Of a stretch of 64,000 nucleotides of DNA, positions 8,272-9,478 are shown piece by piece (the stretch's first letter is position 1; each line of letters begins with the position of its first letter). The DNA is taken from positions 1 to 64,000 of IMG/VR virus record IMGVR_UViG_3300036826_000567; one strand, 5' to 3'. The notes under the pieces were generated by a model. It had not been told where the DNA came from. It did not search any database and was given only the letters and a program-made list of their open reading frames with translations. The stretch is from a virus. Both the position numbers and the translations under genes were made by a program.

Positions 8272-8469
8272 GTGGCTGATGTCCTGCTGCCCTGCCCCTT
8301 CTGTGGCAATGCCAACGTGAGCCTCTATGGTGGGGACGTGGGTGGCCAGTACGTGGCGGCACTCTGTCACCAGTGCTCGGCGATGGGGCCGGAAGCGGCG
8401 ACCCGTGAGGAGGCGGCTCTGAAGTGGAATAGGTGCGATGGCCGAGTCGATCAATCAACAGATCGCTGA
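8272..8469 (+). CDS. Lar-family restriction alleviation-like zinc-ribbon protein
   Basis: LLPCPFCG...CHQC...EEAALKWNR motif. Confidence 0.75.
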   Translation: MADVLLPCPFCGNANVSLYGGDVGGQYVAALCHQCSAMGPEAATREEAALKWNRCDGRVDQSTDR

Positions 8470-9478
8470 TAAGCTTGCCCAGCGCCAGATACGTACCACG
8501 CGAGTGGAGGCTTCACTGCGTCAACAAGTCCTTGAGCAACTCGCTGTCTTAGAGCAAGATATCCTTCAGGCCCTCAAGGCGGCTGATCCAAGCGAGTTTG
8601 CGTTGCTCAGTCGCAGGCGACGTGAGGTTGAGCAACTTATGCAAGACATTGGTGAGATGGTTGATGCTCGCTATGAGCATATGGCTGCATTGCTCACAGC
8701 GGCGCTTCTCCGTTTAGCACAGAATGAGGTGATGACCGTGCAAGAGATCGTCAATAGTGTGAGTGACGAGCAGCCGGTCACAGCGATACCCTCAGATCGC
8801 CAGTTGCGCGCTGGAGTAACGCAATCGCTCTTTCCTTCACCCTCACGTCCTGTTGATCCAAGCGCTGTTGGCAGTGAATGGTGGACGAGAGCCGCCACGA
8901 GCTTTTCTCAACATATCCGTGATAGTCTGCTTGTCGGTGTTAGCCTGGAGGAATCCACGACGCAACTGAGTCAACGACTGCGAGGGACCCCAGACAATGC
9001 GTTTCAGGATGGCATCTTTGCGAAAGGCAGAGAGACAGCTCAACGTGTACTCACGACCCAGACGACGAACGCCCTGGGAGAAGCACGGGCCGCGGTGGGT
9101 CAAGCCAATGCCCGCAGGGTCATCCAAGTCCATACATCCATTCTTGACTCACGTACTTCACTAGTATGTTTAGGCCGTAACGGATTGAAATATGACGCAG
9201 CTACGCATGAAGGCATAGGTCATGACATGCCATATCTTTCAGGAATACCATATCATCCCTCATGAAGATCGAGTTGGACTATCGCTGTGCGCGATGGCGG
9301 GCCGATCCTCCAGGAAAGCACGTCTGCGTGGCTGCGGCGTCAGGGGCCAGCGCTGCAAGATGAGGTACTGGGGCCGACGCGCGCACGGATGTTTCGTGAG
9401 GGCAGGTTGACCTCCCCACGACAACTGATAGACGCGGCAACGGGCCGGCCACTGACACTAGAGGAGTTGGGCGCCTGA
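8438..9478 (+). CDS. Minor head morphogenesis protein (MuF/SPP1 gp7-like) with an in-frame UGA at 9263-9265
   Basis: LDSRTSLVC...PYHPS[UGA]RS. The frame stays open to 9478 and gives the typical tail WLRRQ...QDEVLGPTRARMFREG...GRPLTLEEL. Confidence 0.85.
9267..9307 (+). promoter_or_regulatory. SECIS-like/readthrough hairpin after the in-frame UGA
   Basis: GATCG/CGATC lower stem, CTATCGC/GCGATGG upper stem, and a loop UGUGC that follows the UGA after 20 intervening nt. Confidence 0.5.

Follow-up and report, generated by a model that had tools for sequence, protein, structure and literature searches.

Bacterial selenoprotein genes, of which E. coli fdhF is the prototype, rely on SelB and on a SECIS element inside the open reading frame. 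They carry one in-frame UGA that aligns with the Cys of homologues, with coding sequence continuing beyond it. The bacterial SECIS (bSECIS) has been described by a loop of 3-9 nt, a stem of 4-16 bp, a G in the first two loop positions, a spacing of 16-37 nt and a minimum free energy (MFE) of -7.5 kcal/mol or lower (PMC13188914). Among viruses, the described selenoproteins are the glutathione peroxidase homologues of molluscum contagiosum and fowlpox virus, and the literature searched contained no report of a phage selenoprotein, viral examples being limited to these poxvirus enzymes (PMC8310308). A 2026 review of the prokaryotic selenoproteome makes no mention of phages or viruses (PMC13188914), and the other reviews and surveys of prokaryotic selenoproteomes that were searched likewise mention no phage selenoproteins.

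Here we describe a head-morphogenesis gene of an uncultured soil phage that shares features with each of these systems. As in bacterial selenoprotein genes, a single in-frame UGA stands where homologues have Cys and coding sequence follows it. The UGA is trailed by a 3' stem-loop with a small loop, G then G/U early in that loop, a distance of 20 nt and an MFE below -7.5 kcal/mol, while another UGA acts as the stop (PMC13188914). Unlike the bacterial genes, the phage gene encodes a virion-associated head protein of the MuF type rather than a cellular oxidoreductase, and its decoding machinery would have to be borrowed from the host. Exchange between Sec and Cys would also be unusually frequent, with at least 6 events among 31 sequences, and the hairpin would be rebuilt in different registers. 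The poxvirus genes offer the precedent of a viral Sec-UGA gene decoded by the host, as we propose for MuF, and in fowlpox virus the SECIS also lies inside the coding region. However, those genes are captured antioxidant enzymes of eukaryotic viruses with eukaryotic SECIS elements (PMC8310308), whereas MuF belongs to the core structural module, with repeated Cys-to-Sec changes and a bacterial-type hairpin. With phage Mu F and SPP1 gp7 (PF04233) the gene has in common the terminase-portal-MuF order, a full-length PHROG 241 match and the LDSRT..C and H-x-x-C-R-S motifs. It departs from them in scoring below Pfam thresholds, in carrying UGA in place of the second conserved Cys, and in being a short form without a C-terminal toxin/effector domain. 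The proposed mechanism is the ordinary bacterial one; what is new is its setting in a phage head-module gene, in a protein that is not known to be an oxidoreductase, and with frequent Sec/Cys toggling.

The gene lies on IMG/VR record IMGVR_UViG_3300036826_000567, a linear sequence of 98,897 bp with 59.7% G+C and an estimated completeness of 88%. The window analysed here is the first 64 kb of this record, and the features referred to below are as follows.

4140-5912, + strand: large terminase gene, identified by tblastn to phage TerL genes; its stop is TGA
6035-7579, + strand: portal protein gene (DUF4055; PHROG 145, E = 5e-104)
8438-9478, + strand: MuF / SPP1 gp7-like head-morphogenesis gene (PHROG 241), 346 codons across one internal UGA
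9167-9169, + strand: codon of Cys244 (TGT), the second invariant Cys, invariant or nearly so down to 27% identity
9263-9265, + strand: in-frame TGA, codon 276, candidate Sec codon, at the invariant Cys column of the H-P-x-C-R-S motif
9264-9310, + strand: SECIS-like stem-loop beginning inside the UGA; upper stem 9279-9285 with 9291-9297, loop UGUGC at 9286-9290
9266-9475, + strand: post-UGA coding segment of 70 codons; it contains the unvarying Arg-Ser, one beta strand and a C-terminal helical part that finishes with ..PLTLEELGA (AlphaFold model and relatives)
9476-9478, + strand: true stop of the MuF gene, TGA, overlapping the ATG (9478) of the next ORF (TGATG)

The terminase, portal and MuF genes follow one another in this order. 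Translation table 11 yields a 275-aa ORF (8438-9265) for the MuF gene, whereas PHROG 241 (head morphogenesis) covers residues 1-344, TGA included, at E = 5e-54. Annotated head-morphogenesis genes of cultured phages were matched by tblastn at 25-28% identity over 98-100% of the MuF length. The initial annotation had assigned the protein to the MuF family. This assignment holds by way of the PHROGs match and of homologues at 50-65% identity that carry PF04233 (Phage_Mu_F), and the label is used here on those grounds; at the level of the window protein itself it finds no counterpart in Pfam, where neither the read-through nor the truncated form matched any family, even at E up to 10.

A single internal TGA is present in 8438-9478 (...LDSRTSLVC...PYHPS-TGA-RSSW...), followed by 70 more sense codons and then a second TGA at 9476-9478. 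Translation and homologue alignment agree with the motif, coordinates and downstream frame that had been reported for an in-frame UGA at a conserved Cys. A protein search recovered approximately 60 full-length relatives (about 346 aa), with Cys at the codon-276 column within an invariant C-R-S. It also recovered approximately 30 relatives of 275-278 aa, at 50-64% identity, that end exactly at ...PYHPx, one residue short of the invariant Cys; these are entries among the close homologues in which gene callers cut the MuF gene at 275 aa.

DNA was collected from 58 related loci (IMG/VR and JGI metagenomes), giving 38 distinct coding sequences. Codon 276 was found to be TGA in 15 of these and TGT or TGC in 23, and in none was it TAA or TAG. 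The TGA/TGC/TGT alternation above a conserved downstream frame, which the initial annotation had put forward as a check, is therefore a property of the relatives. No other in-frame stop occurs in the 11,569 codons of these 38 sequences, all 15 TGAs falling at codon 276; approximately 15 further codons per gene lie one mutation from TGA, including that of Cys244 and several invariant Trp codons. When the TGA/Cys state was placed on a maximum-likelihood tree of 31 sequences, parsimony gave 8 changes, of which no fewer than 6 are required by branches with good support, and the TGA labels were not more clustered than shuffled labels. Because the codon alternates, other in-frame stops are absent and the state switches repeatedly on the tree, the TGA/Cys difference is a recurrent and site-specific exchange as opposed to one inherited lesion. 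A search of IMG/VR DNA for the pattern Y-L-x-G-x-P-Y-H-x-x-TGA-R-S returned eight already known records and no further members. Two cultured phages, Pasteurella phage Pm86 and Pseudanabaena phage Pan1, were considered as possible carriers of a split MuF annotation on the basis of their matches, but the MuF genes of both proved to be intact.

The sequence beyond the TGA behaves as a normal part of the gene. Wherever a contig reaches the gene end, the frame beyond codon 276 runs on for 68-70 codons without a stop and ends in the same C-terminus, and Arg277-Ser278, directly after the UGA, is unchanged in all 15 TGA forms. Among pairs of TGA forms, dN/dS of the downstream codons ranges from 0.09 to 0.5, similar to the upstream part; L014 and L016, a pair without saturation, give 0.093 downstream and 0.10 upstream. 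This pattern indicates that the post-UGA segment is translated and under purifying selection.

UGA had been described at the outset as a normal stop elsewhere in this DNA, and this is borne out across the record: TGA terminates 47 of the 110 long non-overlapping ORFs, the terminase gene included, and 13 of the 25 ORFs of at least 300 aa. It is also the stop of the MuF gene in 32 of the 34 relatives with a readable gene end. Because TGA ends the MuF gene itself as well as these 47 ORFs, any recoding must be site-specific, and two UGAs of different meaning in one mRNA therefore require a local signal. The record was scanned for TGAs flanked by long open stretches, and no convincing second gene with an in-frame TGA was found; the candidates checked against the ORF list were antisense to longer genes, while the others were judged by codon-position GC only. 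Independently of TGA usage, TAG stops are unusually frequent for DNA of approximately 60% G+C, accounting for 40 of 110 long ORFs in record G000 and 28 of 66 in G001.

A hairpin directly after the UGA, with loop UGUGC 20 nt downstream and G then U in that loop, formed part of the original observation, and folding agrees with it. The segment 9263-9310 folds at -21.1 kcal/mol (z = -2.74; one shuffle in 200 did equally well), the loop begins 20 nt past the UGA, and its positions 2-3 are G and U. With a perfect 7-bp stem of -8.1 kcal/mol for the stem alone and a spacing of 20 nt, the hairpin satisfies the bSECIS rules. A scan of 8400-9600 against Rfam, at E up to 10, gave no SECIS model and one chance snoRNA match only.

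The same comparison was extended to the relatives. A hairpin with a perfect stem follows the UGA in each of the 14 TGA forms whose downstream sequence is long enough, and it conforms to the bSECIS loop, stem and spacing rules, with loops of UGGA, UGGG, UGGU, GGU or UGUGC and spacings of 18-36 nt, mostly 20-23 nt. Stem energies range from -6.0 to -10.5 kcal/mol; the -7.5 kcal/mol limit is reached by the stem alone in 9 of the 14, the other five lying between -6.0 and -7.0 kcal/mol. The 23 Cys forms, in contrast, average -3.7 kcal/mol and lack the hairpin in 7 cases (Mann-Whitney p = 8e-5 versus the TGA forms, uncorrected for relatedness). Following correction for relatedness, only 5 independent Sec/Cys pairs are available, with a mean of 3.4 in the expected direction and 0 in the opposite one (median p = 0.25); these pairs point the same way as the full set, but their number is too small for significance. 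Conservation of the hairpin in relatives, as first envisaged, appears to apply to the TGA forms rather than to the family as a whole.

Several further properties of the stem-loop were examined. Upon resampling of synonymous codons, the hairpin had a median rank of 0.23 in TGA forms as compared with 0.82 in Cys forms, while single TGA-form hairpins were not significantly better than their own resamples (p = 0.09-0.42). Stems at the same location use four different pairing registers across lineages, the outcome to be expected if the hairpin were rebuilt independently every time Cys gives way to Sec. In a single lineage with six sequences, pairing holds in 97.6% of cells, and two-sided changes are seen at 3 of the 7 pairs, a result matched by 6 of 500 shuffles. 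The closest Cys relative, L054, encodes a near-identical peptide using other synonymous codons and is without such a stem. Good hairpins are also found in some Cys forms (L025, L057, L042 and L007), where they may be remnants or precursors. In one of these (L025:1063-1122, with TGC at the Cys codon), a 14-bp perfect stem of -18.4 kcal/mol with loop GUACUA, 18 nt past the Cys codon, exceeds every TGA form; this stem may be a fossil SECIS left by a recent Sec-to-Cys reversion.

Decoding of the UGA at 9263-9265 as selenocysteine by host machinery is, in our view, the best explanation of these observations, with a probability of about 0.75. Host SelB and Sec-tRNA-Sec would insert Sec at this UGA under the direction of the stem-loop just after it. 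This would yield a MuF-type minor head protein of the full 346 residues in which Sec replaces the invariant Cys276. Ribosomes that fail to insert Sec would presumably release a truncated 275-aa by-product, a loss that a low-copy virion protein could bear. The initial annotation had left Sec insertion and leaky readthrough side by side. Recoding of one of these two kinds is supported, and Sec insertion appears the more plausible given that the codon stands in for an invariant Cys and is followed by an Arg-Ser that is itself invariant. The inserted residue would accordingly be Sec, and the host would be expected to possess selABCD. To our knowledge MuF is not an oxidoreductase, the usual home of Sec, and this counts against the Sec reading.

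The absence of selA, selB and selC from the window had been pointed out previously, and it extends to the entire record: the whole 98.9 kb was found to contain no selA, selB, selD or tRNA-Sec, and no tRNA genes at all. The four other TGA-type viral records that were searched are similarly without tRNA-Sec and selD. Neither MuF nor the TraC-like protein of the phage had a relative in 185,579 species genomes, and the nearest cultured phages show at most 34% identity in the terminase and at most 28% in MuF. Ten ORFs from the 50-64 kb end of a related record, which IMG/VR labels as a provirus, gave phage-type families or none. The sequencing runs listed for the TGA sequence include no RNA runs.

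The best-surviving alternative, though an improbable one, is SECIS-independent programmed readthrough. A near-cognate tRNA (Trp, Cys or Arg) would decode the UGA, perhaps aided by the hairpin, and a fixed ratio of 275-aa to 346-aa MuF would be produced with no involvement of selenium. The base following the internal UGA is C in 12 of the 15 TGA forms, and in E. coli a UGA followed by C terminates weakly. However, this distribution is not clearly different from that at the true stops of relatives, which are often UGA-C too (14 of 34), and therefore context alone cannot separate the two UGAs. Readthrough would be in keeping with the phage record being without Sec machinery genes and with the non-significant outcome of the relatedness-corrected hairpin test, and downstream hairpins can stimulate readthrough as well. 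Against this, a stop that merely sets a ratio could be UAG or could lie elsewhere, whereas here it is always UGA and always at the invariant Cys codon, over at least six independent events. Trp is the usual product of UGA misreading in bacteria, and its insertion would abolish a residue that does not vary among homologues down to 27% identity.

Less likely again is a split gene, in which the UGA is a real stop that ends a 275-aa MuF fragment and the C-terminal 60-70 residues are made by reinitiation, in the window from GTG 9287 (a 63-aa ORF). The GTG-initiated ORF at 9287-9478 does exist. In addition, PHROG 14819, a family of 91 aa, matches only the post-UGA tail (residues 293-344, 9314-9469, E = 6e-6), suggesting that such tails are called as separate genes elsewhere; its members may be MuF C-terminal fragments from other phages with a TGA at codon 276. 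However, the position of in-frame starts after the TGA varies by lineage, from codon 3 to codon 19, and no downstream start would include Arg277-Ser278, even though these residues are invariant in the 15 TGA forms. The invariance of Arg-Ser together with the shifting start positions therefore disfavours reinitiation. Independent splits would also not be expected to hit one codon at least six times, and the last ligand of a conserved C..H..H..C pattern would be lost from the resulting fragment.

A sequencing error and a recent nonsense mutation in a decaying gene had been raised as caveats at the outset; these, like an assembly error, now seem highly improbable. TGT or TGC becomes TGA by a single base change and the record is a metagenome assembly, which would leave room for an artefact. 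However, the TGA is covered, without differences, by Logan contigs from two metagenome runs on different soil samples, at depths of 13.4 (a run that may be the source of the record) and 4.9 (a contig spanning 8942-9600). Because this second soil run and 14 other distinct sequences share the TGA, sequencing error is unlikely. Recent nonsense mutation with decay is excluded by the purifying selection seen after the TGA, where the downstream part has low dN/dS and neither frameshift nor stop; moreover, the gene at 8438-9478 is the sole MuF gene adjoining the portal gene of the phage. Weakest of all is the idea that phage or host reads TGA as a sense codon throughout its genome, as under genetic codes 4 and 25. 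The in-frame TGA itself is the only argument for such reassignment, and against it stand the use of TGA as a stop in the long ORFs counted above and at the TGATG overlap ending MuF, and the record scan, which found no other convincing read-through gene; artefact and reassignment taken together carry very little of the probability.

The pattern C-x17-H-x10-H-x2-C/U, comprising Cys244, His262 (9221-9223), His273 (9254-9256) and residue 276, is conserved down to 27% identity. These residues may form a metal-binding or a nucleophilic/redox site, with Se replacing S in the TGA forms. An AlphaFold model of the full-length MuF protein had a pLDDT of 90.6, while the C-terminal domain modelled alone folded poorly (pLDDT 68). 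Foldseek of the MuF model against the PDB returned nothing at E <= 0.001, and a profile search of PDB sequences with MuF gave no match. Structural matches from VIA-align were set aside, as they covered residues 9-228 only and corresponded to generic helical bundles.

We lean slightly towards a broader reading, in which MuF would constitute a phage-borne selenoprotein family with Sec in a virion protein. Sec and Cys alleles would toggle, and the SECIS would be rebuilt, as the phages move between selenoprotein-competent and -incompetent hosts. Sec would sit within the Cys/His site, whose chemistry, either metal binding or a nucleophile or redox switch employed in head assembly or ejection, would be the core function of the MuF domain. 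As part of this reading, codon 276 would be the functional centre of the domain, because the same codon serves as an intein homing site.

The inteins were observed in homologues of the protein. In P0150, an intein lies directly before the Cys at the codon-276 column, with an N-extein ending ..PYHFN, an intein ending ..HN and a C-extein beginning C-R-S. Inteins at the same Cys were also found in P0165, P0268 and P0130 (two-stretch matches together with Pfam intein matches). Across the family, codon 276 is thus found in three states, namely Cys, TGA, and intein plus Cys. A second intein site lies between T240 and S241 (approximately 9155-9160) in the LDSRT|S..C motif, four residues before Cys244, in P0038, P0100 and P0171; in P0162, P0242 and P0267 this site is assigned by match ends only.

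If the selenocysteine reading is correct, phages exploit the Sec-recoding system of their hosts, and a virion protein that is not an oxidoreductase joins the selenoproteome. It would also provide a chemical handle on the conserved Cys of the widespread and poorly understood MuF domain, the family of which comprises 17,771 clusters at E <= 0.001. Sec-type alleles would in that case be a marker predicting Sec-competent hosts.

Two observations concern other parts of the record. An ORF at 11099-12112 on the + strand (337 aa) matches PHROG 4285, annotated as transposase, at E = 4e-10. A conjugation/T4SS-like module (L064:5533-17476 and L065:35-838; 69.5-84.8 kb of the record) is present on the same 98.9-kb sequence as the tailed-phage structural genes, which could reflect a phage-plasmid, a composite element or a chimeric assembly. 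The module contains TrbI, a TraC/VirB4-like ATPase, TraU, a TraD/TrwB-like coupling protein and an Integrase_1-type recombinase, and the closest plasmid TraC shares 28% identity with the TraC-like protein of the phage.
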